A DNA stretch of 64,000 bases from Gammaproteobacteria bacterium (GCA_026989495.1 JALSJE010000021.1:17239-81238), one strand, 5' to 3'; positions 26,901 through 52,700 are shown, counted from the first letter of the stretch. Notes: generated by a model not told the origin, from the letters alone. Numbers and translations are program-made.

Positions 26901-29440
26901 CGCAGGCCCCCGTCGCGGGCGAGGGGCAGGCACGCCCGGCCGGCGAGGCGGCGCAGCCCGAGGGCGGACGCGACGAGCTCGCCGAGATCTTCCTCGAGGA
27001 GGGTGCCGAGATCCTCGACGCGAGCGAGATGCTGCTCCACCGCTGGCACCAGGAGCACGAGAACCCGGACGTGGTGCGCCAGCTCCAGCGCGAGCTCCAC
27101 ACCCTCAAGGGCGGCGCGCGCATGGCCGGCATCGAGCCCATCGGCAACCTGAGCCATGCGCTGGAGTCGCTGTTCACGGCGGTGGCCGATGGCCATGTGC
27201 CGGTCTCGCCGCGCCTGCTCGACACGGTGCAGCGCGCCTTCGATGCCCTGCACCGGATGCTGGAGGAGGCCCGCGGCGGCCAGCCGGTCACGCCGGACGA
27301 GACCATCCTCCAGGAGGTGGAGAACGTGCGTCTCGGCACCGCGGCGCTGTCGGACGAGAGCGCCTCCGCGGTGACGGGCGAGACGGCCGGGGAGGAGGCC
27401 GCGGCCGAGACGGCGGGAGACGTGGTCGCCCCGGAGGGGACGCCGGTCCCCGCGCAGGCCCCGGAGCCGGCGCCGCCGGAGCCGGTGCCGCCGTCCGAGG
27501 CCGCGGAAGAGGGCGCCGAAGTGGTGCCCCTGCGGCCGCGGCGCGAGCAGGAGGCCGAGGCGGAGGCGGGCCCGCCCAAGGTGGAGCGCCGCGCGCGCCC
27601 CCGCATCCATTACGAGACGGTGCGTGTGCGCGCCGACCTCCTCGACCAGCTCGTCAACTACGCCGGCGAGATCAGCATCTACCGCGCCCGCCTGGAGCAG
27701 CAGTTCGGCGCCTTCCGCTTCAACCTCGCCGAGCTCGAGCAGACCGTGGCGCGCCTGCGCGAGCAGCTCCGGCGCCTCGAGATCGAGACCGAGGCCCAGA
27801 TCCTCGCCACCTACCAGACCGAGGCCGGCACCCTGCGCGAAGACTTCGATCCGCTCGAGCTCGACCGCTACTCCACCGTGCAGCAGCTCTCGCGTGCGCT
27901 CGCCGAGAGCCTCAACGACCTGGTCAGCATCCAGGGCCTGCTCGAGAACCTCACACGCGAGTCCGAGACCCTGCTCCTGCAGCAGTCGCGCATCACCACC
28001 GACCTGCAGGAAGGGCTCATGCGCACGCGCATGGTCTCCTTCAGCGGCCTGGTGCCGCGCATGCGCCGCATCGTGCGGCAGGCCGCCGAGGAGCTCGGCA
28101 AGAAGGCCGAGCTCAGCGTGAGCGGCGCCGACGCCGAGATCGACCGCACGGTGCTCGACCGCGTGACCGCCCCGCTGGAGCACATGCTGCGCAACGCCGT
28201 CTCGCACGGCATCGAGCCCCCCGCCGAGCGGCGCCGCCTCGGCAAGGACGAGGTCGGGCGCGTGCACGTGGCCGTGGGCCGCGAGGGCAACGAGGTGGTG
28301 ATCCGCGTCTCCGACGACGGCGCGGGCATGAATCTCGAGGCCATCCGGCGCAAGGCCGTCGAGCGTGGGCTGCTCGCCCCCGACGCGCAGGTGGATGACG
28401 ACGATCTCATGCGCTTCATCTTCGAGGCGGGCTTCTCCACCGCCGCCGAGATCACGCAGGTGGCCGGCCGCGGCGTGGGCATGGACGTGGTCAACGCCGA
28501 GATCAAGCAGCTCGGCGGCTCCCTCGACATCGCCTCGCAGGCGGGCAAGGGCACGACCTTCACCATCCGCCTGCCCCTGACGCTGGCGGTGAGCCGCGCC
28601 CTGCTGGTCCACGTGGGCGAGGACATCTTCGCGGTGCCGCTCGCGAGCGTCGAGGGCGTGGTGCGCATGGACCGCGAGACGCTGGAGCGCTTCTATCGGG
28701 CCGAGGAGCAGGCGCTCACCTACGAGTACGCCGGCAACCGCTACCGCGTGGAGTATCTGGGGCGTCTTCTCGGCACCTGCGAGCCGGCGCTGGCCGGCGA
28801 CCGCGCGCGCTTCCCCGTCCTCCTGGTGCGCGCCGGTGAGCATCGCTCGGCGCTCCAGGTGGACGCCATCATGGGCGCGCGGGAGGTGGTGGTGAAATCC
28901 GTGGGGCCGCAGATCGCCACCGTGCGCGGCATCGCCGGCGCCACCATCCTGGGCGACGGGCGCGTGGTGCTGATCCTCGACATCGGCCCGCTGGTGCGCA
29001 TGGGCGGTGCGGCCACCGTGCACCTGCCGCCTGCCGGGGAGGCGGCCGAGGCCGAGCGCCCCGTCACCGTCATGGTGGTGGACGACTCCATCACCATGCG
29101 GCGCGTCACCCAGCGCCTGCTGGAGCGCAACCACATGCAGGTGGTCACGGCCAAGGACGGGGTGGATGCGCTCGCCAGGCTGCAGGAGGCGCTCCCGGAC
29201 GTGATCCTGCTCGACATCGAGATGCCGCGCATGGACGGCTACGAGCTCGCCACCCACATCCGCAACGAGGAGCGGCTGCGGCACATCCCCATCATCATGA
29301 TCACCTCACGCACGGGCACGAAGCACCGCGAGCGTGCGGCCGAGATCGGTGTGGATCTCTACCTCGGCAAGCCCTACCAGGAAACCGAGCTCCTGGAGAG
29401 CATCGAGTCGGTGCTGAGGGAACGCCATGGCCATGCCTGA
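23906..29440 (+). CDS. chpA: hybrid CheA-like histidine kinase ChpA (multiple Hpt domains, HATPase, CheW, C-terminal receiver)
   Basis: 1844 aa with repeated Hpt signatures (FHTLKGSGRLVGA, LHTLHGSARMAGA, LHTLKGGARMAGI), a kinase core (GRGVGMDVV...GGSL), a CheW-like domain and a C-terminal REC domain (VMVVDDSITMRR...DIEMPRMDG). Confidence 0.9.
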   Translation: MSFGEGIDPGALGWVRGELEETLKQARQALEAYVEDPGDTAQLQFCASYLHQVRGTLQMLELYGAAMLAEEMEHLVRALLEERISQREDAYEVLMRALLQLPDYLERLRSGGRDLPVLLLPILNDLRATRGENLLSENALFNPDLSVEAPVEPAAGAPLPARELGPRARGLRHQLQRGLLAWYRNQDGRAGLDLMEKALEGLQAACRPGNATRLWWAARGVVEALRDGGLESNVSLKLLLGQLDRQVRRIIEQGQEALESEPPVELLKNLLYYVARATSEGPLVKAIQEAFRLGELLPDEEELEAARDALSGRNRQLLETVSTAIREDLAHVKDALDLIGRTGKANPQALEDMAEVLRRVSDTLAMLGLGAARQLVQEQIERLEALREAGGEGPPEPAALMEMASALLQVETRLEEGLAEPEEPGQVPEPGSPVPEGEYRAVQAAVIREAMADMAKAKEAIVGFIEAPWDHERLTHVPGLFREIRGGLLMLGLARAAGALEAVDAYLREELLGRRLVPEKEDLDRLADAITAVEYYLEAVAEGRAERERILDTAEQAVAALGHPVSGAAPASAAVEAPDETAGGEAPEEALPEEEAQEAGEAVGEAAGEVLEGVEGIEVELVGPEEAAGVPEPGPGEAEAETSPAEGAPAQPAEGAAEEEAAEAGTQAQAAGEAAQPPAAPELHAPDTGEPLQVLAGEVEPDILDIFLEEAEEELSTLRELVPRWRANPDDRDALITVRRAFHTLKGSGRLVGAQVVGEFAWCYENMLNRVIDGTIEPTPALLGLLDESLEVLPGLVEQLRGGPGPRVDLQALLERAHRIARGEPVEPPAFAPVAEEAAAAGEAGAETVAEAPPSPEAAPAMDPTLYEIFSKESAGHLETVRAFLEGCREGDEAACRPTDALVRALHTLHGSARMAGADAIAELAGIAERYVKVVQAREAPLPEEGRTALGEAAETIARMVEALGPAGGELPDAAELRERLAMLHTREQEALEAEEAAAQAPVAGEGQARPAGEAAQPEGGRDELAEIFLEEGAEILDASEMLLHRWHQEHENPDVVRQLQRELHTLKGGARMAGIEPIGNLSHALESLFTAVADGHVPVSPRLLDTVQRAFDALHRMLEEARGGQPVTPDETILQEVENVRLGTAALSDESASAVTGETAGEEAAAETAGDVVAPEGTPVPAQAPEPAPPEPVPPSEAAEEGAEVVPLRPRREQEAEAEAGPPKVERRARPRIHYETVRVRADLLDQLVNYAGEISIYRARLEQQFGAFRFNLAELEQTVARLREQLRRLEIETEAQILATYQTEAGTLREDFDPLELDRYSTVQQLSRALAESLNDLVSIQGLLENLTRESETLLLQQSRITTDLQEGLMRTRMVSFSGLVPRMRRIVRQAAEELGKKAELSVSGADAEIDRTVLDRVTAPLEHMLRNAVSHGIEPPAERRRLGKDEVGRVHVAVGREGNEVVIRVSDDGAGMNLEAIRRKAVERGLLAPDAQVDDDDLMRFIFEAGFSTAAEITQVAGRGVGMDVVNAEIKQLGGSLDIASQAGKGTTFTIRLPLTLAVSRALLVHVGEDIFAVPLASVEGVVRMDRETLERFYRAEEQALTYEYAGNRYRVEYLGRLLGTCEPALAGDRARFPVLLVRAGEHRSALQVDAIMGAREVVVKSVGPQIATVRGIAGATILGDGRVVLILDIGPLVRMGGAATVHLPPAGEAAEAERPVTVMVVDDSITMRRVTQRLLERNHMQVVTAKDGVDALARLQEALPDVILLDIEMPRMDGYELATHIRNEERLRHIPIIMITSRTGTKHRERAAEIGVDLYLGKPYQETELLESIESVLRERHGHA

Positions 29441-34185: not shown

Positions 34186-35604
34186 TCAGTAGCGGTAATG
34201 GTCGGGCTTGTAGGGCCCGTCCACCGGCACGCCGATGTACTCGGCCTGCTCGGGCGTGAGCCGCGTGAGCCTGGCGCCGAGCTTGTCCAGGTGCAGGCGC
34301 GCCACCTTCTCGTCGAGCTTCTTGGGCAGCATGTAGACCTTGCGCTCGTAACGCTCGGGGTGGTTCCAGAGCTCGATCTGGGCGATGACCTGGTTGGTGA
34401 AGGAGGCCGACATGACGAAGGAAGGGTGCCCGGTGGCGCAGCCCAGGTTCACCAGCCGTCCCTCGGCGAGCAGGATGATCTTCTTGCCGTCGGGGAAGAT
34501 GACGTGGTCCACCTGGGGCTTGATGTTCTCCCAGCGGTACTGGCGCAGGCTCGCCACGTCGATCTCGGAGTCGAAGTGGCCGATGTTGCAGACGATGGCC
34601 TCGTCCTTCATGCGCAGCATGTGCTCGTGGGTGATGACGTTCACGTTGCCGGTGGCGGTGACGAAGATGTCGGCCGTCCCGCAGGCCTCGTCCATGGTCA
34701 CCACCCGGTAGCCCTCCATGAGGGCCTGCAGGGCGCAGATGGGGTCGATCTCGGTCACCCACACGGTGGCGCCCATGCCGCGCAGGGCCTGGGCGCAGCC
34801 CTTGCCCACCTCGCCATAGCCGCACACCACGGCGATCTTGCCGGCGATCATGACGTCGGTGGCGCGCTTGATGCCGTCGATGAGCGACTCGCGGCAGCCG
34901 TAGGTGTTGTCGAACTTGGACTTGGTGACGGAGTCGTTGACGTTGATGGCAGGGAACAGCAGCCGCCCCTCCTCGGCCATCTGGTAGAGGCGGTGCACGC
35001 CGGTGGTGGTCTCCTCCGTCACGCCGCGGATGCTGCGCGCGAGCTGCGCGTACCAGCCGGGCCGCTCCTCGAGGCGGCGGCGGATGGCGGCATACAGCAC
35101 GCGCTCCTCCTCGCTCTGCGGATCGTCCAGCACGCCCGGATCCTGCTCGGCACGCACGCCCAGATGCACCAGGAGGGTGGCGTCGCCGCCGTCGTCCAGG
35201 ATCATGTTGGCGGTGCCGCCGTCGTGCCACTCGAAGATGCGGTGCACGAAATCCCAGTACTCCTCCAGGCTCTCGCCCTTGTAGGCGAAGACCGGGATGC
35301 CGCGCGCGGCCATGGCGGCGGCTGCGTGATCCTGGGTGGAAAAGATGTTGCACGAGGCCCAGCGCACCTCCGCCCCCAGCTCCACCAGGGTCTCGATGAG
35401 CACCGCCGTCTGGATGGTCATGTGCAGGCAGCCGGCGATGCGGGCGCCGGCGAGCGGCTTGCGCCCGCGGTACTCCTCGCGCACCGCCATGAGGCCGGGC
35501 ATCTCGGTCTCGGCGATGCGGATCTCCTTGCGGCCCCACTCGGCCATGGAGAGGTCCTTGACGTGGTAGTCGGGCTCGCGCTCGCGTGCGGGCTGGCTGC
35601 TCAT
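34186..35604 (-). CDS. ahcY: adenosylhomocysteinase
   Basis: 472 aa from MSSQPARE matching SAH hydrolase along its length ([13 protein letters not shown] site, HFDSEID). Confidence 0.95.
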
Positions 35605-35669
35605 CGCGGCTCCTCCCTCGCTGATGCGGCGCGGACGCCGGTGCGGCGTCCGCCAGGTTCTTGGACTGC

Positions 35670-35830
35670 TGGAAACTCTGATCAATCCGCTGCGCGGATT
35701 GATCAGCGCGATAGTGCTTCGCGGTCCATTTCGATTTTTCACGTGTCGTCATGGACTTCCCTGTGCATGGGCCGTCCCGCGGCCGTCCGTGGCCGCGGGA
35801 AAGGTCTGAAAAATCGGATTTTCAGACCTT
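35670..35830 (-). repeat. structured intergenic repeat, copy A (4 hairpins), in the ahcY 5' leader / after metK
   Basis: ggaaactctgatcaatccgcTGCGCgcggattgatcag ... catgcacagggaagtccatg ... cccgcggccGTCCGTggccgcggg ... ggtctgaaaaatcggattttcagacc. Nearly identical to the copies at 38030 and 45789 (the latter inverted). Confidence 0.8.
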
Positions 35831-35860
35831 TCTGCTGAATTCTAGCCCGGGCCGTCCGGC

Positions 35861-37039
35861 TCAGGCGCTGCGCGCCTCCGGCAACCCGGCGTCGGCCCGC
35901 AGGGCCTCGGCCTTGTCGGCGCGCTCCCAGGTGAACTCGGGCTCGGGCCGGCCGAAGTGCCCGTAGGCGGCGGTCGCGCGGTAGATCGGCCGCAGCAGGT
36001 CCAGCATCTCGATGATGCCGCCCGGGCGCAGGTCGAAGTGGGCGCGCACGAGCTCGGCGATGCGCTCGTCCGGGATGCGTCCGGTGCCGAAGGTCTGCAC
36101 GCTCACCGAAGTGGGCTCGGCCACGCCGATGGCGTAGGAGACCTGAATCTCGCAGCGGGCGGCGAGCCCCGCCGCCACGATGTTCTTGGCCACGTAGCGC
36201 CCCGCATAGGCCGCCGAGCGGTCCACCTTGGAGGGATCCTTGCCCGAGAAGGCTCCGCCGCCGTGGCGGGCCATGCCGCCGTAGGTGTCGACGATGATCT
36301 TGCGGCCGGTGAGGCCGGCATCGCCCACGGGCCCGCCGATGACGAAGCGGCCGGTAGGGTTGATGTGGTAGCGGGTGCCGGCATGCAGCCATTCGGCCGG
36401 CAGCACCGGCTTGATGATCTCCTCCATCACCGCCTCGCGCAGGGTCTCGGCGTGTATCTCGGGCGCGTGCTGGGTGGAGAGCACCACCGCGTCCACCGCC
36501 ACCGGGCGCCCCTCGCGGTAGCGCACCGTCACCTGGCTCTTGGCGTCGGGGCGCAGCCAGGGGAGCGTGCCCGCGCGGCGCAGCTCGGCCTGGCGCTGCA
36601 CCAGGCGGTGCGCGTAGTGTATGGGCGCCGGCATGAGCGCCTCGGTCTCGTCGGTGGCGTAGCCGAACATCATGCCCTGGTCGCCCGCCCCCTGCGTCTT
36701 GGGGTCGCCGCGGTCCACGCCACGGCGGATGTCCGGCGACTGCTTGCCGATGGCGACCAGCACCGCGCAGGTGCGTCCGTCGAAGCCGATCTCGGAGCTG
36801 TCGTAGCCGATCCCGGTGACCGTCTCGCGCACCACCGCCTCGTAGTCCACGCTGGCCGCGGTGGTGATCTCGCCCGCGAGCATCACCAGCCCCGTCTTGA
36901 CCAGGGTCTCGCAGGCCACGCGCGCGTGGCTGTCCTGGGCGAGGATCGCGTCGAGGATCGCGTCCGAGACCTGGTCGGCCACCTTGTCGGGGTGGCCCTC
37001 CGAGACCGACTCCGAGGTGAAGACGTATTCCTGGCTCAT
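35861..37039 (-). CDS. metK: S-adenosylmethionine synthetase
   Basis: 392 aa from [26 protein letters not shown] and the other MetK signatures are present. Confidence 0.95.
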
Positions 37040-37171
37040 CGTCGCTCCTGCCGGCGGCGGCCGTGGCCGGCCGCCGGATGCCGTGCACGACGCCGCCCGC
37101 GGCCGGGGCCGCGGGCGGCGGCGGACCAAGTCTAGCGCCTCGGGCGTCGGGGCGCACCCGTCCGGGCGGCC

Positions 37172-38002
37172 TCAGCGGTAGCCCCACACCCCCTCGAGGA
37201 GCCGGGCGTAGCCGTCGTAGACCTTGGCGTCGGCCGGCACGAAGCGGGGGAAGTTGATGGCCTTGAGCATGGCCTGGCCCGCAGGGGTCCTGTCGGCCTC
37301 CACGAGGGCCTTGCGGATCGCCTTGCGCACGGGCTCGGGCACGTCGGGCGAGGCCGACATGGCGATGTGGGGCACGGGGTCGGTCGTGGTCACCACGTTG
37401 AGGGGGAAGGCGCCCACCAGCGGCGAGGGCACGATCGCCGCCACGGCCCGCCCCTTCAGCACCGCATCGATCGCCTGGCGCGAGTTGTCCACCTCCACCG
37501 CGACAGGCTGGCGCAGCGGGTTGGGGAAGAGCTGGGAGAGCCGCACCGCGCCCAGGCTCGGCGAGCCTATGGTGGCCACAGTCTTGCCGATCAGCTCGGT
37601 GGGCTCGAGCACGAGCGTGTCCTCGCCGGTGACCAGGCTGTAGCTGACCGTGTCCGGGATCTTGGCCAGCACCACGTAGTCCATGTTCTTGACGCGCCAG
37701 TCCGTGAAATGGGCGGCATCCAGGATCAGGTCATAGTCGCCGCGCTTCATCCGGGCCCAGTAGGCGAGGAAGTTTACGGCGGTCACCAGCCGTATCTGCT
37801 GGCCGGTCGCCCGGCTCAGGTAGTCGGCCAAGGGCTGGAAGGCCGCCCGGGTCTGGGCCGGGGGCAGGATGGGCTGGACGACGAAGGTGTAGGTTTCGGC
37901 CCGCGCCGCCGGCGGGACGAGCGCGCCGGCGCAGGCGGCGACGAGCAGCAGCAGAGCGGCGACCAAGGGTGGCCGCCGGGTGGTGCCGGCCTGGATGCTC
38001 AC
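37172..38002 (-). CDS. periplasmic substrate-binding protein, phosphate/phosphonate-binding (PhnD-like) family
   Basis: About 276 aa from a GTG with a GGAGGG RBS. Has a signal peptide (LVAALLLLVAACAGA) and a type-2 periplasmic-binding fold. The first 14 codons of the longer ORF lie inside repeat copy B and are rejected. Confidence 0.6.
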   Translation of the reverse strand: MSIQAGTTRRPPLVAALLLLVAACAGALVPPAARAETYTFVVQPILPPAQTRAAFQPLADYLSRATGQQIRLVTAVNFLAYWARMKRGDYDLILDAAHFTDWRVKNMDYVVLAKIPDTVSYSLVTGEDTLVLEPTELIGKTVATIGSPSLGAVRLSQLFPNPLRQPVAVEVDNSRQAIDAVLKGRAVAAIVPSPLVGAFPLNVVTTTDPVPHIAMSASPDVPEPVRKAIRKALVEADRTPAGQAMLKAINFPRFVPADAKVYDGYARLLEGVWGYR

Positions 38003-38029
38003 GGAACGACCCTCCGCTTTGCTTCTTTT

Positions 38030-38176
38030 GGAAACTCTGATCATCCGCTGCGCGGACTGATCAGCGCGATGGCGCTTCGCGGTCCATTTCGATTTTTTCT
38101 TTTATCGTCATGCACTTCCCTGTGCATGGGTCCCCGGCCGCGGGAAAGGTCTGAAAAGATCGAATTTTTCAGACCT
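38030..38176 (-). repeat. structured intergenic repeat, copy B (one arm of hairpin 2 deleted)
   Basis: Same element as copy A, with changes in the hairpin loops while the stems are kept. About 30 nt upstream of the PhnD-like GTG start. Confidence 0.8.
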
Positions 38177-38595
38177 TTCTTCCATTACAAGGGATTACAT
38201 CGCGAGTCTAGGTGCGGGCGCACCCGCCCGCAAGGTGGGCGCGGGACCCGTCTGGAGGCAGCGGCAGCGTGCCGCCGACGAGCGGCCCCCAAGAGGGGCT
38301 TATGGGCGCATAGGGCGCGCACGGGGCAGGGGCGGCTGGTTGCACCTTGCCCCCCGCCGGATGCTCAGGGAAAATTGGCGTTTCATCGCACAGCGATGGG
38401 ATGCCTGTGCCGCGGCGCCGAGCGAGGCGCGCCGCGGGGCGCCGGAGCACACAGACAGCGACCATCCCTCTGCCCGGGGTGCGGCCCCGGCGACCCGGAC
38501 CGCCAGGCGGCGGAGGGGCAGGTGCGTTCCGCCACGCCGGGACACGGCGCCGGATTCGGCAAACCGAGGCATTCACGAGAACAGGGGAGGGGGCT

Positions 38596-40596
38596 ATGCC
38601 TTCGCGTAAAGACCTGGCCAACGCGATCCGTGCGCTCAGCATGGACGCGGTCCAGAAGGCCAACTCGGGCCACCCGGGCATGCCCATGGGCATGGCCGAC
38701 ATCGCCGAGGTGCTCTGGAACGACTACCTGCGGCACAACCCGGCCAACCCGAAGTGGTGGGACCGCGACCGTTTCGTGCTGTCCAACGGCCACGGCTCGA
38801 TGCTGCTCTACGCCCTGCTGCACCTGACGGGCTACGATCTCGGCATCGAGGACATCAAGCGCTTCCGACAGCTCCACTCCAAGACCCCGGGCCATCCCGA
38901 GTACGGAATCACCCCCGGCGTCGAGACCACCACCGGCCCCCTCGGCCAGGGCATCACCAACGCCGTCGGCATGGCGCTGGCCGAGAAGGTGCTGGCCGCG
39001 CGCTACAACCGCGACGGCCACACCATCGTGGACCACTGGACCTACGTCTTCCTCGGCGATGGCTGCCTCATGGAGGGCATCTCCCACGAGGCCTGCTCGC
39101 TCGCCGGCACCTGGGGCCTGGGCAAGCTCATCGCCTTCTACGACGACAACGGCATCTCCATCGACGGCCACGTCGAGGGCTGGTTCACCGACGACACGCC
39201 CAAGCGCTTCGAGGCCTACGGCTGGCACGTCATCCCGGGCGTGGACGGCCACGACCCCGAGGCCATCCGCAAGGCCATCGAGGCCGCACGCGCGGTCCCC
39301 GACAAGCCCTCGCTCATCTGCTGCAAGACCGTCATCGGCTACGGCGCGCCCAACCTCTGCGGCAGCCACGACTGCCACGGCGCCCCCCTGGGCGAGGACG
39401 AGGTGCAGGCCACCCGCGAGAACATCGGCTGGCCGCACCCGCCATTCGTCATCCCCGAGGAGATCTACCAGGGCTGGGACGCGCGCGAGAAGGGTGCCCG
39501 CCTCGAGGCCGAGTGGCGCGAGCGCTTCGAGGCCTATCGCAAGGCCTTCCCGGAGCTCGCCGCCGAGTTCGAACGCCGCATGCGGGGCGAGCTCCCCGGC
39601 GACTGGGCCAAGGAGGCGGCCGAGTACATCGCCAAGGTGGCGGCCGAGGCGAAGGACATGGCCACCCGCAAGGCTTCGCAGGTGGCGCTCGAAGGCTACG
39701 GGCCGAAGCTGCCCGAGCTCATCGGCGGCTCGGCGGATCTCGCCGGCTCCAACAACACCATCTGGTCCGGCTCCAAGGGCATCTCGAAGGACGAGCCGGA
39801 CGGCAACTACGTCTACTACGGCGTGCGCGAGTTCGGCATGTCGGCCATCATGAACGGGCTCGCCCTGCACGGCGGCTTCATCCCTTACGGCGGCACCTTC
39901 CTCGTCTTCTCCGACTACGCGCGCAACGCCGTGCGCATGTCGGCGCTGATGGGGCTGGGCGTGATCTACGTCTATACCCACGACTCCATCGGCCTTGGCG
40001 AGGACGGCCCCACGCACCAGCCCATCGAGCACGTGGCGAGCCTCAGGCTCATCCCCAACCTGCATGTCTGGCGCCCCTGCGATGGCGCCGAGACGGCCGT
40101 GGCCTGGCGCGCGGCCATCGAGCGGCGCGACGGGCCCACGGCGCTGGTGCTCACGCGCCAGGGCCTCAAGGCCCAGAGCCGCACGCCCGGGCAGGTCGAG
40201 GCCATCGCCCGCGGCGGCTACGTGCTTTCCGACTGCGAGGGCGAGCCCGAGGCGATCGTCATCGCCACCGGTTCCGAGGTGGCGCTGGCGCTGGAGGCGC
40301 AGAAGCTGCTGGCCGGGAAGGGCCGGCGCGTGCGCGTGGTCTCCCTGCCCTGCGCCGAGGTCTTCGACGCCCAGGACGAGGCCTGGCGCGAGTCCGTGCT
40401 GCCCTCGTCCGTGCAGGCCCGGGTGGCGGTCGAGGCGGGCACCACGCCCTGGTGGTACCGCTACGTCGGCTGCCGCGGCCGGGTGATCGGCATCGACCGT
40501 TTCGGCGAGTCGGCGCCGGGCAAGGCGCTGTTCGAGCATTTCGGCTTCACGGCCGAGAACGTGGCGCGCGCCGTCGAGGAGGTGCTCGGCGGCTGA
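38596..40596 (+). CDS. tkt: transketolase
   Basis: 666 aa from [28 protein letters not shown], with the ThDP motif [10 protein letters not shown]. Confidence 0.95.
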
Positions 40597-40668
40597 GCGT
40601 GCGCAGGCTCACGGGCGGGCGGTAGGGAGCCGTCCGCCCCGGGTACGGCATCTGCGAGGAGAGAAGCA

Positions 40669-41682
40669 ATGGCGATCAAGGTTGCGATCAACGGGTTCGG
40701 CCGCATCGGCCGCAACGTCCTGCGGGCCCTGTACGAGGCGGGGCGCACCAACGAGATCCAGATCGTTGCCATCAACGATCTGGGCAACGCCCAGACCAAT
40801 GCGCATCTGACCCGCTACGACACGGTGCACGGCCGCTTCGCCGGCAGCGTGGAGGTGGACGGCGACTACCTCGTGGTCAACGGCGACCGCATCCGCGTGC
40901 TGGCCGAGCGCGACCCCTCCAAGCTCCCCTGGGGCGAGCTGGGCATCGACGTGGTGATGGAGTGCACGGGGCTGTTCACCTCCAAGGAGAAGTCCATGCC
41001 CCACATCCAGGCCGGGGCCAGGAAGGTGCTGATCTCGGCCCCCGGTGGCAAGGACGTGGACGCCACCGTGGTCTATGGCGTCAACCACCACGTCCTCAAG
41101 GCCGAGCACCAGGTGGTCTCCAACGCCTCCTGCACCACCAACTGCCTCGCCCCGCTGGTCAAGCCGCTGCACGAGAAGATCGGCGTGGTGCGCGGCCTCA
41201 TGACCACCATCCACTCCTACACCAACGATCAGGTCCTGATCGACGTCTACCACAAGGACCTGCGCCGCGCGCGCTCGGCCACCCAGTCGCAGATCCCGAC
41301 CAAGACCGGTGCCGCCGCCGCCGTGGGCCTGGTGCTGCCCGAGCTCAACGGCAAGCTCGACGGCTTCGCCGTGCGCGTGCCCACCATCAATGTCTCGCTG
41401 GTGGACCTCACCTTCGAGGCCGCGCGCGACACCTCCATCGACGAGATCAACGCGGTGCTGAAGGGGGCGGCCGAGGGCGAGCTCAAGGGCATTCTCGCCT
41501 ACAACGAGGAGCCGCTGGTCTCCATGGACTTCAACCACACCACGGTCTCCTCCACCTACGACGCCACGCTCACGCGCATCATCGACAACCGTCTGGTGAA
41601 GGTCTGCTCCTGGTACGACAACGAGTGGGGCTTCTCCAACCGCATGCTCGACACCTGCGTGGCGATGATGAACGCCAAGTGA
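40669..41682 (+). CDS. gap: glyceraldehyde-3-phosphate dehydrogenase
   Basis: 337 aa with INGFGRIGR and the active-site [10 protein letters not shown]. Confidence 0.95.
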
Positions 41683-41764
41683 GACGCAGCGCGTGACCGG
41701 CCGGGGCGCCCGGCGGGCGCCCCGGCCCCGTTTCCTTGCCGGGCTCAGGGGGGATCCAGCCGAG

Positions 41765-42949
41765 ATGTCCGTGATCAAGATGACCGACCTCGACCTCGCG
41801 GGCAAGCGCGTGCTCATCCGCGAGGACCTCAACGTCCCGCTCAAGGACGGCCGGGTGGCCGACGACACCCGCATCCGCGCCTCGTTCCCCACCATCGAGC
41901 ATGCCGTGAAGGCGGGCGCACGCGTGATGCTCATGTCGCACCTGGGCCGGCCCGAGGAGGGTGTCTACGACGAGAAGTACTCGCTGCGGCCCGTGGCCGA
42001 GCACCTCTCCCGGCTCCTCGGCCGCGAGGTGCGTCTCGTCAAGGACTACCTCGACAATCCGCCCGAGGTGGCCGAGGGCGAGGTGGTGGTGCTGGAGAAC
42101 GTGCGCTTCAACAAGGGCGAGAAGAAGGACGACGAGACGCTGGCCCGCGCGTACGCCGCCCTGTGCGACGTCTACGTGATGGATGCCTTCGGCACCGCCC
42201 ACCGCGCCCAGGCCTCCACGCACGGGGTGGCGCGGTTCGCGCCCGTGGCCTGCGCCGGGCCCCTGCTCGCCGCCGAGCTCGAGGCCCTGGGCAAGGCGCT
42301 CGAGGACCCGGCCCGCCCCATGGTCGCCATCGTCGGCGGCTCCAAGGTCTCCACCAAGCTCACCGTGCTGGACGCCCTCTCGCGGAAGGTGGACCAGCTC
42401 ATCGTCGGCGGCGGCATCGCCAACACCTTCATCGCCGCCGCGGGCCATCCGGTGGGCAGGTCGCTCTACGAGCCGGACCTCGTGGCCGAGGCCAAGCGCC
42501 TCATGGAGCAGGCCCGGGCCAAGGGCGGCGAGATCCCCGTCCCCACCGACGTGGTGGTGGCCAAGGAGTTTTCGGAGAGCGCCGCGGCCGTGACCAAGCC
42601 GGTGGACCAGGTGGCCGAGGACGAGATGATCCTCGATATCGGCCCGGAGACGGCCGAGCGCTACGCCCGGATCCTGCAGGGCGCCGGCACCGTCGTGTGG
42701 AACGGCCCCGTGGGCGTGTTCGAGTTCGACCAGTTCGCCGGCGGCACGCGGCGCCTGGCCGAGGCCATCGCCGCCAGCCCCGCCTTCTCCATCGCCGGCG
42801 GCGGCGACACGCTCGCCGCCATCGCCAAGTTCGGCGTGGGCGAGCGCATCTCCTACATCTCCACCGGAGGCGGCGCCTTCCTGGAGTTCCTCGAGGGCAA
42901 GAAGCTGCCCGCGGTGGCGGTGCTCGAGGAGCGGGCGGCGCAGGCGTGA
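41765..42949 (+). CDS. pgk: phosphoglycerate kinase
   Basis: 394 aa from [25 protein letters not shown]. Confidence 0.95.
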
Positions 42950-42981
42950 GGCGGCCGGCGGCGCGGGTGGGGGGCGGCACC

Positions 42982-44427
42982 ATGCCGAGACGCACCAAGA
43001 TCATCGCCACCCTCGGCCCCGCCACGGACGATCCCGCCGTCCTGGACGAGGTGATCCAGGCCGGCGTGGACGTGGTGCGCGTCAATTTCTCCCATGGCAG
43101 CGCCGAGGAGCATGTGCAGCGGGCCGATACGGTGCGCAACCGCGCCCGGGCGCATGGGCGCCAGATCGGCGTCATCGCCGACCTGCAGGGGCCCAAGATC
43201 CGCATCGAGGGCTTCCGTGAGGGTCAGGTGCTGCTCCAGGAGGGCGCGCGCTTCGTGCTCGACGCCAACCTCGGTCCCCGGGACGGCACCTCCGAGCGCG
43301 TCGGCATCACCTACAAGGACCTGCCGAGCGACGTCGAGCGCGGCGACACGCTGCTCCTCGACGACGGGCGCATCGTCCTGTGGGTGGACGAGGTGGTCGG
43401 CGGCGAGATCGTCTGCCGCGTGGTGGTCGGCGGGGAGCTCAGCGACAGCAAGGGCATCAACCGCCAGGGCGGGGGGCTTTCGGCCAAGGCCATCACGGAC
43501 AAGGACCGCGCCGATATCCGCGTCGCGGCCGAGATGCAGGCCGACTACCTCGCCGTCTCCTTCCCGCGCAACGCCGAGGACGTGCTGGAGGCACGCGAGC
43601 TCTTCCGCGCCGCCGGCGGGCACGGCGGCGTCATCGCCAAGATCGAACGCGCCGAGGCGTTGGAGGCGATCGAGGACATCATCCGCGCGGCCGACGCGGT
43701 GATGATCGCCCGCGGCGACCTGGGCGTGGAGATCGGCGACGCCGAGCTACCCGGGGTGCAGAAGCGCATCATCCACCTCGCCCGTTCCATGGACAAGGTG
43801 GTTATCACCGCCACGCAGATGATGCAGTCCATGGTCGAGAGCCAGATCCCCACGCGCGCCGAGGTCTTCGACGTGGCCAACGCCGTGCTCGACGGCACCG
43901 ACGCCGTCATGCTCTCGGCCGAGACCGCCACCGGGCGCTACCCGGCCAAGGCCGTGGCCGCCATGGACCGCATCTGCCGCGGGGCCGAGCGCCAGGCGGG
44001 CAGCGTGGCCGTGGAGCGGCGCAATCCCACACGCTTCACGCGGGTGGACGAGGCCATCGCCAAGGCCTCCATCTACACCGCCAACCATCTCGGCGTGAAG
44101 GCGATCGCGGCGCTGACCGAGTCCGGCGCCACGGCGCTGTGGATGTCGCGCGTCACCTCCGACATCCCCATCTATGCGATGACGCGCCACGTGGCCACGC
44201 GGCGCAAGGTGACGCTCTACCGGGGGGTCTATCCGGTGAGCTTCGACGTCACGAGCACCGACCACCCCGCGGTCAACCGCGAGATCGTCGACGAGCTGGT
44301 GCGTCGCGGGGCGGTGCGCGACGGCGACCTCGTCATCATCACCAAGGGCGACCTCTCGGGCGTGGCCGGCGGCACCAATGCCATGAAGATCGTGCGTGTT
44401 GGGGAGCTCATCGGCCCGGCCACCTAG
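42982..44427 (+). CDS. pyk: pyruvate kinase
   Basis: 481 aa from [13 protein letters not shown], with ...[11 protein letters not shown].... Confidence 0.9.
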
Positions 44428-44546
44428 GGGGCCGTCATCGGGTAAAATCGGGCTCCCCACGGGGGCGCCCGGGGCGCCCCGGCCCGCAGGGCGCGGGCGC
44501 CGGAGGAGACGGAACCGGAACACGAAGCGAGACTGAGGAGACGGCT

Positions 44547-45611
44547 ATGGCGCTCATCACCCTTCGACAGCTTCTCGACCACGCCGCCGAGCACGGCTAC
44601 GGCGTGCCGGCTTTCAACGTCAACAACATGGAGCAGATGCACGCGATCATGGAGGCCGCCGACGAGACCGACAGCCCCGTGATCGTGCAGGCCTCGGCCG
44701 GTGCGCGCAAGTACGCAGGCCCCTCCTTCCTCAAGTACCTGATCGTCGCCGCCATCGAGCAGTGGCCGCACATCCCCGTGGTCATGCATCAGGACCACGG
44801 CGCATCGCCCGCGGTCTGCCAGCGCTCCATCCAGCTCGGCTTCTCCTCCGTCATGATGGACGGCTCGCTGATGGAGGACATGAAGACCCCCTCCACCTAC
44901 GAGTACAACGTGGAGGTCACGCGCCGGGTGGTGGAGATGGCCCATGCCTGCGGCGTCTCGGTCGAGGGCGAGCTCGGCTGCCTCGGCTCGCTGGAGACCG
45001 GCATGGCGGGCGAGGAGGACGGCGTCGGCGCCGAGGGCAAGCTCTCGCACGACCAGCTCCTCACCGATCCCGACCAGGCCGCCGACTTCGTCAAGCAGAC
45101 CGGGGTGGATGCGCTCGCCATCGCCATCGGCACCAGCCACGGCGCCTACAAGTTCAGCAAGCCGCCCACGGGCGAGGTGCTGCGCATCGACCGCATCAAG
45201 GAGATCCACGCCCGCATCCCGGACACGCACCTGGTGATGCACGGCTCCTCCTCGGTCCCTCAGGAGTGGCTCGAGATCATCCACGAGTTCGGCGGCGACA
45301 TCGGCGAGACCTACGGCGTGCCCGTGGAGGAAATCGTCGAGGGCATCAAGCACGGCGTGCGCAAGGTCAACATCGACACCGACCTGCGGCTCGCCGCCAC
45401 CGGCGCGATCCGCAAGAACCTCGCCGAGAACCCGAAGAACTTCGACCCGCGCAAGTACCTCACGGCGGCCAAGGACGCCATGAAGGAGATCTGCAAGCAG
45501 CGCTACGAGGCCTTCGGCACGGCAGGCAACGCCTCCAAGATCAAGCCCATCCCCATGGAGGAGATGTGGCGGCGCTATGCCAGCGGCGAGCTGGATCCGC
45601 GCGTCAACTGA
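44547..45611 (+). CDS. fba: class II fructose-bisphosphate aldolase (354-aa CbbA/Calvin-cycle subtype)
   Basis: [27 protein letters not shown]...HQDHG...[10 protein letters not shown]. This is the long class IIB form used for FBP/SBP cleavage. Confidence 0.9.
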
Positions 45612-45788
45612 GGCGCGCGTGCCATGGCCACCGGAGAGGGCGGGGCGACCCGCCCTTTCTCTTTGGGGAGAAGGCCAGCAGCAGGCAGCACGTGGCGAGG
45701 GAGGCGCGGCTTCCAGCCGCGCCCCGCCGGCGGGGCCGCTTTCCGCACGGCATCCGCAGACCCTGGCGCCCTGATTCTCATAAGGAAG

Positions 45789-45960
45789 CTCTGAAAAATC
45801 CGATTTTTCAGACCTTTCCCGCGGCCAGGGACGGCCGCGGGACGGCCCATGCACAGGGAAGTGCATGACGATACGACGAAAAATCGAAATGGAACGCGAA
45901 GCACCTCAGCGCTGATCAATCCGCGCAGCGGATTGATCAGAGTTTCCATCAGAGTTTCCA
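45789..45960 (+). repeat. structured intergenic repeat, copy C (inverted relative to A/B; 12-bp terminal duplication)
   Basis: gctctgaaaaatccgatttttcagacc - cccgcggccAGGGAcggccgcggg - catgcacAGGGAagtgcatg - ctgatcaatccgcGCAGCgcggattgatcag - agtttccat(cagagtttccat). Lies between fba and the aldolase-Dabb gene. Confidence 0.8.
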
Positions 45961-46071
45961 TAAGCATTCATTTATCGAAAACAAATCTGGAATCGATTGG
46001 AATTCATCGACTGCTTGTGGACAGAATAACGCGGCCGCCTGAGGCGGCCGCGGACGCGAGGAGGACCCACC

Positions 46072-47244
46072 ATGCCGCTCGTGCACATGGGCGACATGCT
46101 CCGCCATGCCCACCGGCACCGCTATGCCGTGGGCGCCTTCGACCTCGTGGAGCTCTCCTTCCTCGAGGCGATCGTCGCCGGCGCCGAGGCCTGCGCGGCG
46201 CCCGTGATCCTGAGCCTGGCCGAGTCGCACTTCGAGCACTACGACTTCGAGCTCGCCATGGCGGCCACGGTGGCCGCGGCGCGGCGCGCGCGCGTCCCCG
46301 TGGCCATCCACCTGGATCACGGCGCGAGCCTGGAGTCGGCCGTGCGCGGCATCGCCCTCGGCTGCAACGGCGTCATGGTGGACGCCTCCCACGAGCCCTT
46401 CGAGGAGAACGTGCGGCGCACGCGCGCCGTGGTCGAGATGGCCCACGCCTGCGGCGTGCCGGTGGAGGGCGAGCTCGGCTACGTGGCCGGCGTCGAAGGC
46501 GAGGACGCCGAGAAGCATCCGGGCGAGGTCGTCTACACCGCCCCCGAAGAGGCGGCCGAGTTCGTGCGGCAGACGGGGGTGGACTTCCTCGCCGTCTCCA
46601 TCGGCACCGTCCACGGGCGGCTTCGGGGCGAGCCGCGGCTGGACCTCGAGCGGCTCGCCGCGATCGACGAGGCACTCGGGCTGCCGCTGGTGATCCACGG
46701 CGGCACGGGTCTCGGAGATGCCCAGTTCCGCGCCATCATCGAACGCGGCGTGACCAAGATCAACTACTACACGGCGCTCGCCGACGCCGCGGCGGCGAGC
46801 ATCCGCGCCCGCGCCGCCGAGGACCCGCGCGCGGGCTACACGGGGCTCATGCGGGATGTGCGCCGCGCCATCCGCGACGAGGTCGAGCGATGCATCCGCC
46901 TGTGGGGCTCGGCGGGGCGCGCCGCCGCGGTGCTGGCCGAGGCGCGGCCATGGCGGGAGATCGAGCACGTCATCCTGTGGAACACGGACGCGGGCGAGGA
47001 GCGGGCCGCGGCCGCCATGGCCGAGGGGCGCGAGAAGCTCGCGCGCATCCCCGGCGTGCGGCACGTGCGCACCGGCACCGCCGTCGACGCGGATGCGCGC
47101 TACCGCTATTGCTGGCTGATCGGCTTCTCCTCCGTGGCCGCGCGTGACCACTACCGCGACCACCCGGTCCACGTCGCCTATGCCGACGGAACCTTCCGGC
47201 CCATGGCGGGCGATCGGGTTCGGGTGGACTACGCGCTGGACTGA
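46072..47244 (+). CDS. class II (ketose-bisphosphate) aldolase family protein fused to a C-terminal Dabb (stress-responsive alpha/beta barrel) domain
   Basis: 390 aa. The N-terminal 290 aa are aldolase-like (HLDHG, VEGELG, IHGGTG). The C-terminal 95 aa ([13 protein letters not shown]...[12 protein letters not shown]...[14 protein letters not shown]) look like a Dabb domain. RBS is GAGGAGGA. Confidence 0.55.
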
Positions 47245-52256: not shown

Positions 52257-52700
52257 CATAAGCTTGCGTATGAGCATGACGGACTCCGGAAGAAGCTCGA
52301 GACGAGCCCGGGCATCTTCTGCAGGCTGCGCAGGGCACCGATGGCGGCAGACACCAGCTCGGCCCTGCTCCTCACGGCAGCCCTGCCGATCCTGCGCTTG
52401 ACATGCGCCCAGACCAGCTCGTCCGGGTTCAGCTCAGGCGAATAGGGCGCAGGAAGAAGAGCTCGATCCGGTCATCATGCTCGGCCACGAACTTCTCCAC
52501 CAGCCTGGCCTTGTGCACCGGATGTCCATCGACGATCAGGAATATCTTGCGGTCCATGCCCGTGATCAGCCGCCTGAGGAAATCCCGAGACACACGCGCC
52601 GTCACTCGCCCCTCCACCGTCATGAACCGGAAATGCCCCCGGGCATTGACAGCAGACAGCATGTTGAACGAGAAGCGCTCACCCGTCGCCTTCACCAGCG
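52257..52700 (-). pseudogene. IS630-family transposase 3' fragment (frameshifted, N-terminus missing)
   Basis: ...RKIFLIVDGHPVHKARLVEKFVAEHDDRIELFFL then, after a frameshift, (LPPYSP)ELNPDELVWAHVKRRIG...LVSSFFRSP. This is the DDE_3 C-terminal region; no HTH N-terminus is present. Confidence 0.6.

Follow-up and report, generated by a model that had tools for sequence, protein, structure and literature searches.

The structured intergenic repeat described here is, with high confidence, a family of MITEs: non-coding, non-autonomous DNA transposons of 162-176 bp. A sequence-only reading had listed a MITE/REP-like mobile module among its candidates, and in the MITE form this claim was borne out by the inverted repeats, 4-bp duplications, dozens of dispersed copies and empty sites of the family. 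In this best explanation, the inverted repeats, duplications, copy numbers and insertion polymorphisms relative to related genomes were seen directly; the transposase type and the essentially selfish nature of the element are what we infer.

Window copies and their fold

The window (the whole stretch of gammaproteobacterial DNA that was analyzed, 64,000 nt) carries three copies with a pairwise identity of 82-92%, found where the sequence-only reading had placed them but with refined limits. All three lie between genes, as it had said, and each points to the next gene start, at a distance of 66 nt (copy A to ahcY), 27 nt (copy B to the PhnD-like gene) or 112 nt (copy C to the aldolase-Dabb gene). 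The copies and their parts are as follows.

35667-35670, minus strand, target-site duplication of copy A, 3' side (AGCA on the element strand, TGCT on the plus strand)
35671-35832, minus strand, MITE copy A, in the spacer between metK (stop 35861) and ahcY (start 35604)
35671-35677, minus strand, terminal AGTTTCC of copy A
35678-35706, minus strand, hairpin 4 of copy A
35707-35749, minus strand, linker of copy A
35750-35769, minus strand, hairpin 3 of copy A (loop AGGGAA, 35757-35762; one C-C mismatch in the stem)
35777-35798, minus strand, hairpin 2 of copy A (loop ACGGAC, 35785-35790)
35799-35832, minus strand, hairpin 1 of copy A
35833-35836, minus strand, target-site duplication of copy A, 5' side (AGCA on the element strand)
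38030-38179, minus strand, MITE copy B, in the divergent spacer between the PhnD-like binding-protein gene (GTG start 38002) and tkt (start 38596)
38037-38064, minus strand, hairpin 4 of copy B
38109-38128, minus strand, hairpin 3 of copy B
38131-38143, minus strand, hairpin 2 remnant of copy B
38144-38179, minus strand, hairpin 1 of copy B
45780-45783, plus strand, target-site duplication of copy C, 5' side (ATAA)
45784-45947, plus strand, core of MITE copy C, between fba (stop 45611) and the aldolase-Dabb gene (start 46072)
45784-45818, plus strand, hairpin 1 of copy C
45819-45840, plus strand, hairpin 2 of copy C (loop AGGGAC, 45827-45832)
45848-45867, plus strand, hairpin 3 of copy C (loop AGGGAA, 45855-45860)
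45868-45911, plus strand, linker of copy C
45912-45940, plus strand, hairpin 4 of copy C
45941-45947, plus strand, terminal AGTTTCC of copy C
45948-45959, plus strand, 12-nt tandem duplication at the 3' terminus of copy C (ATCAGAGTTTCC)
45960-45963, plus strand, target-site duplication of copy C, 3' side (ATAA)

All four of the hairpins claimed earlier are present, and the arm reported lost from hairpin 2 of copy B is its 3' arm, removed by an 18-nt deletion. The gene-proximal 12-bp duplication noticed in copy C was located at the end of the core; CAGAGTTTCCAT occurs twice in copy C and three times in ENA contig L001, and 6 of 62 family copies have such a 12-nt 3' extension. Other details needed correction. 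Hairpin 4 does have a 13-bp stem, but its loop is the 3-nt GCA instead of GCAGC; the AGGGA loops said to be identical in hairpins 2 and 3 are so in copy C, but not in copy A, where hairpin 2 has ACGGAC. Hairpin 1 had been called terminator-like for the UUU that follows it; these residues pair with the 5'-terminal GAAA/GGAA, leaving no U tail, and with the UUU paired the hairpin is a palindrome of 15-17 bp. Searching the window with a 29-nt pattern for hairpin 4 recovered copies A and C, copy B being too diverged (0.00 matches expected from 100 shuffles). The predicted fold of copy C has a free energy of -76.8 kcal/mol (z = -7.4).

The element was also judged non-coding in the earlier reading. 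In agreement, its short open reading frame, which begins at an ATG after hairpin 3, shifts frame from copy to copy, and the translated frames of the element gave no match to predicted proteins.

Family ends, target-site duplications and empty sites

Counting copies in other sequence had been proposed as a check. An nhmmer profile built from four copies (A-C of the window and one from contig L006) found at least 75 near-full copies (>100 bits) in 638 kb, along with fragments; almost all of the near-full copies are in the metagenome Ga0256839, in about 0.5 Mb on more than 40 contigs with a G+C content of 72%, as in the window. The ends are sharp: in alignments of 62-68 copies with their flanks, similarity stops exactly at GGAAG... 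and ...GTTTCC. Within these limits of 162-176 bp the termini form imperfect inverted repeats, GGAAGGTCTGAAAAATC...GATTGATCAGAGTTTCC, which agree at 13 of 17 positions, the 5' end being GGAAG(G/C)NCTGAAAAATC and the 3' end, read inwards as its reverse complement, GGAAACTCTGATCAATC. Behind each end the element carries an internal inverted copy of that end, which makes hairpins 1 and 4 self-folded terminal repeats. The core between them consists of a conserved linker rich in A and two GC-rich hairpins, each with an ANGGAN hexaloop. Over most of the element, conservation among copies is about 95%, and in the family alignment changes on both sides of a pair were found in 5 pairs of hairpin 1 and 3 of hairpin 4, with no compensatory change in hairpins 2 and 3.

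The 4-mers flanking the element are identical in 28 of 62 copies and match at three of four positions in another 10 (shuffled expectation, 0.9 and 3.8, respectively); perfect duplications include AGCA, ATAA, GAGA, TGAA, GGAT and GCGC. Those of copy B have decayed (GGAA/AAAA, two of four matching). The 12 nt on each side of the element contain 53% A+T vs. 30% further out.

In relatives whose flanking proteins are 86-92% identical to those of the window, orthologous spacers lacking the element were found for all three window copies (contigs L064, L065/L066 and L070-L073). At the copy C site, L064, whose aldolase-Dabb protein is 92% identical, has a single ATAA (...GACC-ATAA-GCATCCGTTTATCG...), the window counterpart being ATAA-[element]-ATAA-GCATTCATTTATCG. 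The metK-ahcY spacer of L070, which corresponds to the copy A site, is 85 nt long and has no element, and the copy B site reads without interruption as ...TTGTTATATAAGAAGCAAAGCGGAGG... in L070, L071, L072 and L073.

The genes that adjoin the element are unrelated, and it occupies every kind of spacer. The three window copies do share one orientation, 5' of a gene (a coincidence with a chance probability of about 1/4, one copy being in a divergent spacer), but the arrangement claimed from them holds for only 45 of 66 copies family-wide: the other 21 have no gene start downstream, 11 of them lying between convergent genes. In many family copies the distance from the element to the next start codon is 1-60 nt, the four hairpins ending within 40 nt of it in at least 16 cases; in co-directional spacers the element usually lies close behind a stop codon, with many copies at 0-30 nt. 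The many copies only 1-40 nt before a start codon would thus be transcribed within the leader of the downstream mRNA or within an intercistronic region. In co-directional spacers the gene-sense orientation is favored 25:7 (p=0.002), suggesting selection on the appearance of the transcribed strand.

The ends also point to a type of transposase. The 5' end agrees at 12 of 16 positions with both ends of the E. coli IS5 (IS5A, NC_000913), the first seven nucleotides, GGAAGGT, being identical, and the element ends resemble GGAAGGTGCGAA..., as in the IS5 group. IS5 likewise duplicates 4 nt of its target, with a YTAR target preference (PMC5009759). Judged from the end sequence and the 4-bp duplication, these likenesses suggest an enzyme of the IS5 type. 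The element differs from IS5 in its length (162 bp vs. 1195 bp), in having no transposase gene and in its targets, which are AT-rich without following YTAR; none of the 28 perfect duplications fits YTAR, which is a trait of IS5 itself and perhaps not of every family member. Neither an autonomous element with these ends nor an IS5-type transposase turned up in the 638 kb, which were searched for the end motif, with IS5 InsH by tblastn and, for atypical genes, by a Pfam scan; DDE_Tnp_1 had no match in the sampled sequence. The sole transposase remnant in the window is a fragment of the IS630-type DDE_3 (52429-52695); a transposase of this type would not produce 4-bp duplications.

We propose that a DDE transposase encoded elsewhere binds both ends and excises or copies the element, which would then be inserted by a staggered 4-bp cut. 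Insertion would favor the short AT-rich islands of a genome with 71-72% G+C, and because these islands adjoin stop codons, ribosome-binding sites and promoters, copies would become tightly wedged between genes. Transcribed copies would fold into four stable hairpins within the RNA of their neighbors. Besides the missing parent element in the 638 kb and the misfit to YTAR, two observations speak against the MITE explanation: the non-random gene orientation (25:7) is not predicted for a purely selfish element with symmetric ends, and simple recognition of the ends by a transposase does not explain the co-varying arms of the terminal palindrome.

Known bacterial MITEs, such as the Correia elements of Neisseria, ERIC/IRU of enterobacteria and RUP of Streptococcus pneumoniae, are non-coding and 100-300 bp long, occur in tens to hundreds of intergenic copies, are co-transcribed with their neighbors and fold into stable hairpins. 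The element has in common with them its size, terminal inverted repeats, a short duplication, intergenic copies and presence/absence polymorphism. It is unrelated to all three in sequence and differs from them in that each terminus is itself palindromic (the end plus its internal inverted copy) and in its core with two ANGGAN hexaloop hairpins; Correia elements and RUP duplicate TA, while the 4 bp duplicated here vary in sequence. Copy C had no match in the plasmid collection.

GGA hairpins and a putative link to CsrA

The sense-strand excess and the two core hairpins raise a tentative extension of the MITE explanation, not a replacement for it, namely that the MITE also carries putative binding sites of the CsrA/Rsm type; we consider this unlikely. 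Hairpins 2 and 3 fit the RsmE/CsrA core C-ANGGAN-G with its closing C-G pair, and hairpin 3 (ACAGGGAAGU) fits the full consensus (A/U)CANGGANG(U/A), which reportedly comes from structural work on RsmE-hcnA. In 54 of 68 copies CANGGANG matches twice on the sense strand and never on the antisense strand, against a window background of 0.43 matches per kb and strand (about 0.07 over the length of one element). Divergence in the hairpin-2 loop falls mainly on the free positions (A.05, N.32, G.05, G.03, A.08, N.24), and in the hairpin-3 loop of the 11 copies that lay outside selection by the search pattern GGA is unchanged, all three changes being at the two N positions. The conservation of GGA is nevertheless unexceptional in an element that is mostly so well conserved, and the lack of compensatory changes in hairpins 2 and 3 counts against the CsrA reading.

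The element's only Rfam similarity is to TwoAYGGAY (RF01731, CsrB clan), an RNA with a pair of GGA hairpins that has been proposed to bind CsrA (PMC4333381). Both have two neighboring GC-rich hairpins with GGA-centered hexaloops, and the cmscan alignment places hairpins 2 and 3 on the two AYGGAY hairpins of the model. But the model's outer helix has no counterpart in the element, loop position 2 is mostly G instead of a pyrimidine, and the GGA-hairpin module lies inside a transposon, whereas TwoAYGGAY is a stand-alone RNA gene. The scores of 23-28 bits (copy A 23.4, L011 28.3) are also well below the gathering threshold of 43, and only one of about 12 copies scanned reached E<10. Moreover, no csrA gene was found in the 638 kb searched, and a literature search found nothing on CsrA in this lineage. 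Finally, AGGGAAGUGCAUG may be no more than what is left of a lost transposase gene, its Shine-Dalgarno sequence and AUG, hidden in a hairpin as known from other insertion sequences.

If the sites did bind CsrA, the two GGA hexaloops of the sense transcript, about 28 nt apart, could be clamped by one CsrA dimer. Dozens of copies would then couple neighboring mRNAs to the Csr system or act jointly as a distributed CsrA sponge, about 100 transcribed copies perhaps buffering free CsrA, and the 25:7 sense excess would be the footprint of selection on this activity at the RNA level.

Other readings and the meaning of the family

The co-varying palindromic ends, the many intergenic copies and the orientation bias are also features of REP/BIME sequences mobilized by RAYTs. 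In an alternative of this or the IS200/IS605 type, a tyrosine (HUH) transposase would recognize the hairpins instead of inverted-repeat ends and move the element as single-stranded DNA. This is highly improbable: HUH elements produce no target-site duplications, whereas regular 4-bp duplications and terminal inverted repeats, both lacking in REPs, are hallmarks of DDE transposition. The element is, furthermore, a composite of 165 bp instead of a palindrome of 20-40 nt, and no RAYT/TnpA_Y1 gene was seen in the limited sample searched.

Equally little probability attaches to a family of small-RNA genes in which each copy is transcribed independently. The stable fold and the weak TwoAYGGAY similarity would fit it, but scans found no sigma-70-like promoter and no intrinsic terminator inside or at the ends of the window copies, both strands fold equally well (z = -7.4 and -7.0), and the boundaries are set by transposon ends and duplications instead of transcription signals.

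A terminator-plus-leader cassette, in which hairpin 1 ends the upstream gene and the remainder serves as the leader of the next, had been suggested too, and the long stable stem of hairpin 1 and its frequent position just after a stop codon agree with it. The suggestion fails on the UUUC after the stem, which pairs with the 5' GAAA/GGAA and leaves no U tract, and on the terminator scan, which found none inside the elements; a conserved terminator belonging to fba (45642-45656) already precedes copy C, no gene upstream of copy B shares its orientation, and copies 1-40 nt from a start codon would need read-through for the gene to be expressed. We regard it as very improbable.

Least probable of all is a dedicated cis-regulatory leader RNA of the riboswitch or attenuator kind, also suggested earlier, since its strong fold and the start codons that lie downstream of all three window copies and close to many others are outweighed by the empty orthologous spacers of close relatives, the unrelated downstream genes, the one third of copies without a downstream gene start, the target-site duplications that mark arrival by insertion, and the absence of any Rfam match at the gathering threshold, TwoAYGGAY matches being sub-threshold; the earlier reading had likewise recognized no known riboswitch in it.

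The MITE family is new, though its kind, the bacterial MITE, is already known. A structured repeat before ahcY and genes of the Calvin cycle and glycolysis looks like a riboswitch or leader, and its identity as a recently inserted MITE averts mis-annotation. About 17 family copies lie within 350 bp of contig ends, and copies so placed explain assembly breaks in this uncultured, high-G+C lineage resembling sulfur oxidizers. The family illustrates how a GC-rich genome funnels insertions into a few AT-rich islands. If its GGA hairpins do bind CsrA, it would be a mobile element naturally rewiring a global post-transcriptional regulon, a case of which a full-text search on MITEs and CsrA returned no described example, and neighboring genes would come under Csr control whenever the element entered their leader or an intercistronic region.

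Limits and hairpins of the three copies

The repeat noticed at three places in the window proved to be real, with about 165 nt alignable and pairwise identities of 82-92%. Genes were called with a codon-usage caller trained on the window, and the calls agreed with those stored for the same locus in L001, an ENA contig. The gene order is metF, ahcY, copy A, metK, PhnD-like binding protein, copy B, tkt, gap, pgk, pyk, fba, copy C, aldolase-Dabb, and purC. As had been read from the sequence, all copies are intergenic and each is oriented towards the next start codon. In the window, a 29-nt pattern of hairpin 4 was found in copies A and C, with an expectation of 0.00 (100 shuffles).

Features around the three copies (window positions; refined limits for the copies)
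34186-35604, minus strand, ahcY
35671-35832, minus strand, MITE copy A
35861-37039, minus strand, metK
37172-38002, minus strand, PhnD-like binding protein
38030-38179, minus strand, MITE copy B
38596-40596, plus strand, tkt
ends 45611, fba
45784-45947, plus strand, MITE copy C, plus a duplicated 12-nt terminus at 45948-45959
46072-47244, aldolase-Dabb

The four hairpins, numbered 5' to 3' on the element (sense) strand, were present in the fixed order claimed. Copy B does lack one arm of hairpin 2 (the 18 nt absent are the 3' arm), and the terminal duplication described for copy C was seen as two occurrences of CAGAGTTTCCAT. The 13-bp stem of hairpin 4 stood, but its loop has 3 nt and is not GCAGC. 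The UUU behind hairpin 1, taken for a terminator tail in the sequence-only reading, pairs with the 5'-terminal GAAA/GGAA, so that the stem is 15-17 bp long and a U tail is absent. The 12-nt unit at the 3' end of copy C, (AT)CAGAGTTTCC, occurs twice in the window (45948-45959) and three times in L001 (9858-9893), which is otherwise 99.9% identical to the window; the number of units is a copy-number polymorphism between assemblies. In the family, 6 of 62 copies have an additional 3' terminus of this kind; in five, half of the 5' end repeat is found once more immediately upstream.

We then analyzed the structure over 62 copies. The four-hairpin model paired 97.8% of cells, compared with 36-42% when the partners were slid by 1-3 columns. 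Compensatory changes lay mostly in the terminal palindromes: columns 6/33 of hairpin 1 had GC 34 and CG 18 times, columns 7/32 had UA 38, CG 7, GC 7, and UG 6 times, and columns 154/170 of hairpin 4 had AU 30, GU 21, and GC 9 times. None of 500 shuffles reached the observed covariation. Covariation, proposed earlier as a check, was thus found for hairpins 1 and 4 and not for hairpins 2 and 3, which are near-invariant and therefore give no such evidence; hairpin 3 also formed part of the copy search pattern. Both strands fold alike (z = -7.4 and -7.0), so structure alone cannot tell whether DNA or RNA was the selected form. When G-U and A-C mismatches were compared as a test of RNA versus DNA selection, the sole clear asymmetry was at column 154/170 (21 G-U, 2 A-C), which could be one inherited change and is thus uninformative. 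At both termini the hairpin consists of an end repeat and then an inverted copy of that repeat, and the arms could have co-varied through hairpin selection in single-stranded DNA or RNA, or through repair within the palindrome.

Insertion and spread of the MITE family

To map the ends, 68 copies were aligned with 45-nt flanks. Similarity between copies begins and ends sharply, at GGAAG(G/C)NCTGAAAAATC... and ...GATTGATCAGAGTTTCC, and these ends are mutual inverted repeats at 13 of 17 positions. The flanking 4-mers were identical in 28 of 62 copies and matched at three of four positions in another 10, against shuffled expectations of 0.9 and 3.8; in the window they are AGCA/AGCA for copy A, ATAA/ATAA for copy C, and a decayed GGAA/AAAA for copy B. 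In one copy, in L033 (3846-4009), the flanking duplication, AGACGGAT, is 8 bp long rather than 4. The 12 nt on each flank are 53% A+T versus 30% farther out, so the element inserts into AT-rich islands. Insertion just 3' of -10-like hexamers was rejected: TANNNT is evenly frequent on both sides and strands (9, 8, 10, and 6 of 62), which supports only a general AT-rich target preference.

Empty sites were found for all three copies. In the relative's fba/aldolase-Dabb locus L064, ATAA is present once (...GACC-ATAA-GCATCCGTTTATCGAAAAC...) at the point where ATAA-element-ATAA-GCATTCATTTATCGAAAAC stands in the window. The metK-ahcY spacer measures 85 nt in the relative's locus L070 and 256 nt in the window, and ...TTGTTATATAAGAAGCAAAGCGGAGG... 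is uninterrupted at the site of copy B in L070-L073. All three window insertions postdate the split from relatives with 86-92% identity in the flanking proteins. The earlier judgment that the repeat is not coding held: a small ORF 3' of hairpin 3 (MTIRRKIEMEREAPQR; also in copy B) was rejected because its frame differs in copy A and in L006, and the peptide from the open antisense frame gave no match in a protein search. Taken together, the inverted-repeat ends, the target duplication of fixed length, the high number of copies, the absence of coding capacity, and the polymorphic insertions identify the repeat as a MITE, one of the options of the sequence-only reading. It is a genuine, well-delimited new family, although the kind itself is well known.

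The repeat had not been recognized as a known RNA family, and Rfam, searched with the whole window at the gathering threshold, matched none; a permissive search gave only sub-threshold matches to TwoAYGGAY and evident chance matches (e.g. miRNA and IRES models). Species-representative genomes, scanned with the conserved 21-mer AAATCGAAATGGANCGCGAAG, contained one true copy, L006. Six further matches, in Bdellovibrio-like, Crocinitomicaceae, and Planctomycetaceae MAGs, were rejected as copies, their likeness being confined to 21-28 nt around the pattern. Two scans of viral contigs found no copy, and the plasmid collection gave no match in 'distant' mode. JGI metagenomes scanned with GCACAGGGAAGTNCATGACGA yielded 55 loci, every one from metagenome Ga0256839, with a G+C content of 66-77% (mean 72%; window, 71%). 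A profile search of these loci and the window (638 kb) counted 75 near-full copies and about 10 fragments. Contig ends are no more than 350 bp away from about 17 copies, as is typical of assembly-breaking repeats, so the real copy number is higher. The family's expansion is recent and took place in a single uncultured gammaproteobacterial lineage of high G+C content. The aldolase-Dabb protein has close homologues named Sulfurifustis and Sulfuricaulis, and these names place the window among Acidiferrobacterales-like Gammaproteobacteria.

The contig L006/L024 (JALSGW010000039.1), the sole element-bearing contig from a species-representative MAG, is labelled 'Alphaproteobacteria bacterium', in contrast to the gammaproteobacterial names of the window's nearest named protein relatives. 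Of the many MITE-bearing Ga0256839 contigs, this MAG includes just one; either a binning error of the contig or a wrong label on the MAG is to blame. Copies also cluster: L040 holds three in 2.3 kb (536-701, 771-934, and 2608-2771), and in L010 (6191-6428) a full copy is directly followed by a partial one. Solitary hairpin-4 pieces, each a 3' end repeat with its inverted copy, lie apart from full copies (L023 8078-8142, L046 9308-9342, L051 5826-5871, and L050 17-66), and are either decayed elements or a still smaller mobile unit.

The ends of E. coli IS5, read from NC_000913, are GGAAGGTGCGAATAAG and GGAAGGTGCGAACAAG. The MITE 5' end, GGAAGGTCTGAAAAAT, matches both at 12 of 16 positions, the first seven bases being identical. 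The target duplication of IS5 is 4 nt, YTAR (PMC5009759), the same length as that of the MITE, whereas the target sequence differs. No parent transposase or full-length partner was found in the 638 kb with the end motif outside known copies or by tblastn with IS5 InsH, and none of 10 atypical genes scanned against Pfam was an IS5-type transposase candidate. The MITE probably derives from an IS5-like element, a supported lead rather than demonstrated membership. The window also holds an 88-aa DDE_3 (IS630-type) transposase fragment (52429-52695, minus strand; Pfam E = 6e-18; G+C 60%, lower than its surroundings), a decayed insertion sequence of a family other than the MITE's.

Neighboring features in the window and in relatives

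The region upstream of aldolase-Dabb (45960-46071) is conserved with L064, and its motif GGAATCGATTGGAATTCATC is also kept in the relatives' loci L065 and L066. It closes immediately 5' of the ribosome-binding site with CGCGGCCGCCTCAGGCGGCCGCG (46030-46052), a perfect palindrome rich in G+C, and is a candidate operator or leader that has no relation to the MITE. In the MITE's place, the relatives' fba/aldolase-Dabb spacers have short tandem repeats, CACTGTC runs in L064 (7350-7690) and GGGAGACGGGTTGC runs in L065 (2865-3287) and L066 (363-799), the latter two unequal in repeat number; this spacer evolves fast. The genes at 44547-45611 and 46072-47244 are adjacent class II fructose-bisphosphate aldolase paralogues (82% DNA identity over 84 nt), the second of which carries a Dabb domain (stress-responsive alpha-beta barrel) fused at its C terminus. 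The same fusion occurs widely among sulfur-oxidiser-like Gammaproteobacteria (2989 homologues, E<=1e-30).

Upstream of tkt (38200-38596, plus strand), blocks such as GGGCAGAGGGATGGTCGCTG and CATCGCTGYGCGATGAAACGCCAATTTTC are conserved in the relatives' loci L070-L074, and may form a structured leader, or a region that regulates the Calvin-cycle gene cluster; the only Rfam match there, to COG2908, was at chance level (16.6 bits). One long ORF (25853-27143) has three internal repeats spaced about 480-530 nt apart, each encoding a motif of the HTLKG(S/G) type; these repeats suggest a CheA-like kinase that contains multiple Hpt domains. A 55-nt GC-rich direct repeat (GGCGCTGCGGCGCTCCCCGCGACTGCGCGCTGCGCGCGCCC...; spacing 126 nt, 96% identity) lies at 17505-17685.

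Gene context and CsrA-type hairpins

We examined the spacers that hold the element. A stop codon upstream and a start codon downstream frame 25 copies, while 12 lie in divergent spacers, 11 in convergent spacers, and 7 antisense in co-directional spacers; no gene starts downstream of 21 of the 66 copies. Compared with all 450 spacers of the loci (73% co-directional, 14% divergent, 13% convergent), those with the element (58/22/20%) are somewhat enriched in divergent and convergent ones. Scans of the window copies found no sigma-70-like promoter and no intrinsic-terminator-like site inside them. The native fba terminator (45642-45656), kept in relatives, lies upstream of copy C, and the conserved native upstream region of aldolase-Dabb lies downstream of it. 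With these data, neither an obligate leader nor a terminator cassette is tenable: the proposed terminator-plus-leader cassette fails on the missing U tail, the negative terminator scan, and the fba terminator, and a dedicated leader RNA on the copies without a downstream gene start and those in convergent spacers. Two further promoter readings were rejected: a sigma-54 one in TGGACCGCGAAGCA, whose GG-GC spacing is 10 and not 12, and an outward sigma-70 one from TTGATC in the 3' terminus, for which a -10 element at workable spacing is missing and the scan was negative.

Orientation towards the downstream gene is nevertheless non-random across the family: co-directional spacers favor sense over antisense by 25:7 (p = 0.002), and by 19:6 (p = 0.015) with stricter gene calls. 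At least 16 copies end 1-40 nt 5' of a start codon, which leaves no room for a promoter, and we infer that they are transcribed into mRNA. The sense excess and the start-codon proximity point to consequences at the RNA level.

Hairpins 2 and 3 have GC-rich stems, a C-G closing pair, and ANGGAN hexaloops. The CsrA/RsmE binding consensus is (A/U)CANGGANG(U/A), and hairpin 3 (ACAGGGAAGU) fits the whole of it. CsrA/RsmE binding sites are GGA-loop hairpins, usually paired (PMC4333381), an architecture shared by hairpins 2 and 3. In 54 of 68 copies CANGGANG occurs twice on the sense strand and never on the antisense strand, against a background of about 0.07 per element length. The N positions of the hairpin-2 loop vary in 32% and 24% of copies, and its A, G, G, and A in 3-8%; in 11 copies not selected by the pattern, the GGA of the hairpin-3 loop was unchanged and all three changes fell at the two N positions. 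By cmscan, both hairpins align with the two AYGGAY hairpins of TwoAYGGAY, a proposed CsrA-binding RNA of the CsrB clan, at a sub-threshold 23-28 bits versus 43. However, conservation of about 95% is the rule over most of the element, and AGGGAAGUGCAUG could represent the Shine-Dalgarno sequence together with the AUG of the lost transposase gene. No csrA was found in the 638 kb searched by tblastn with CsrA of E. coli, Pseudomonas, and Bacillus, a result that is uninformative for the genome as a whole. The MITE may spread paired CsrA-type hairpins, but we consider a real interaction with CsrA improbable. A full-text literature search on MITEs and CsrA returned no paper linking them.

In practice, identifying the repeat as a MITE allows it to be annotated correctly. 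The one aspect that could surprise is the hypothesis that, as it moves, the family would spread paired CsrA-type hairpins.
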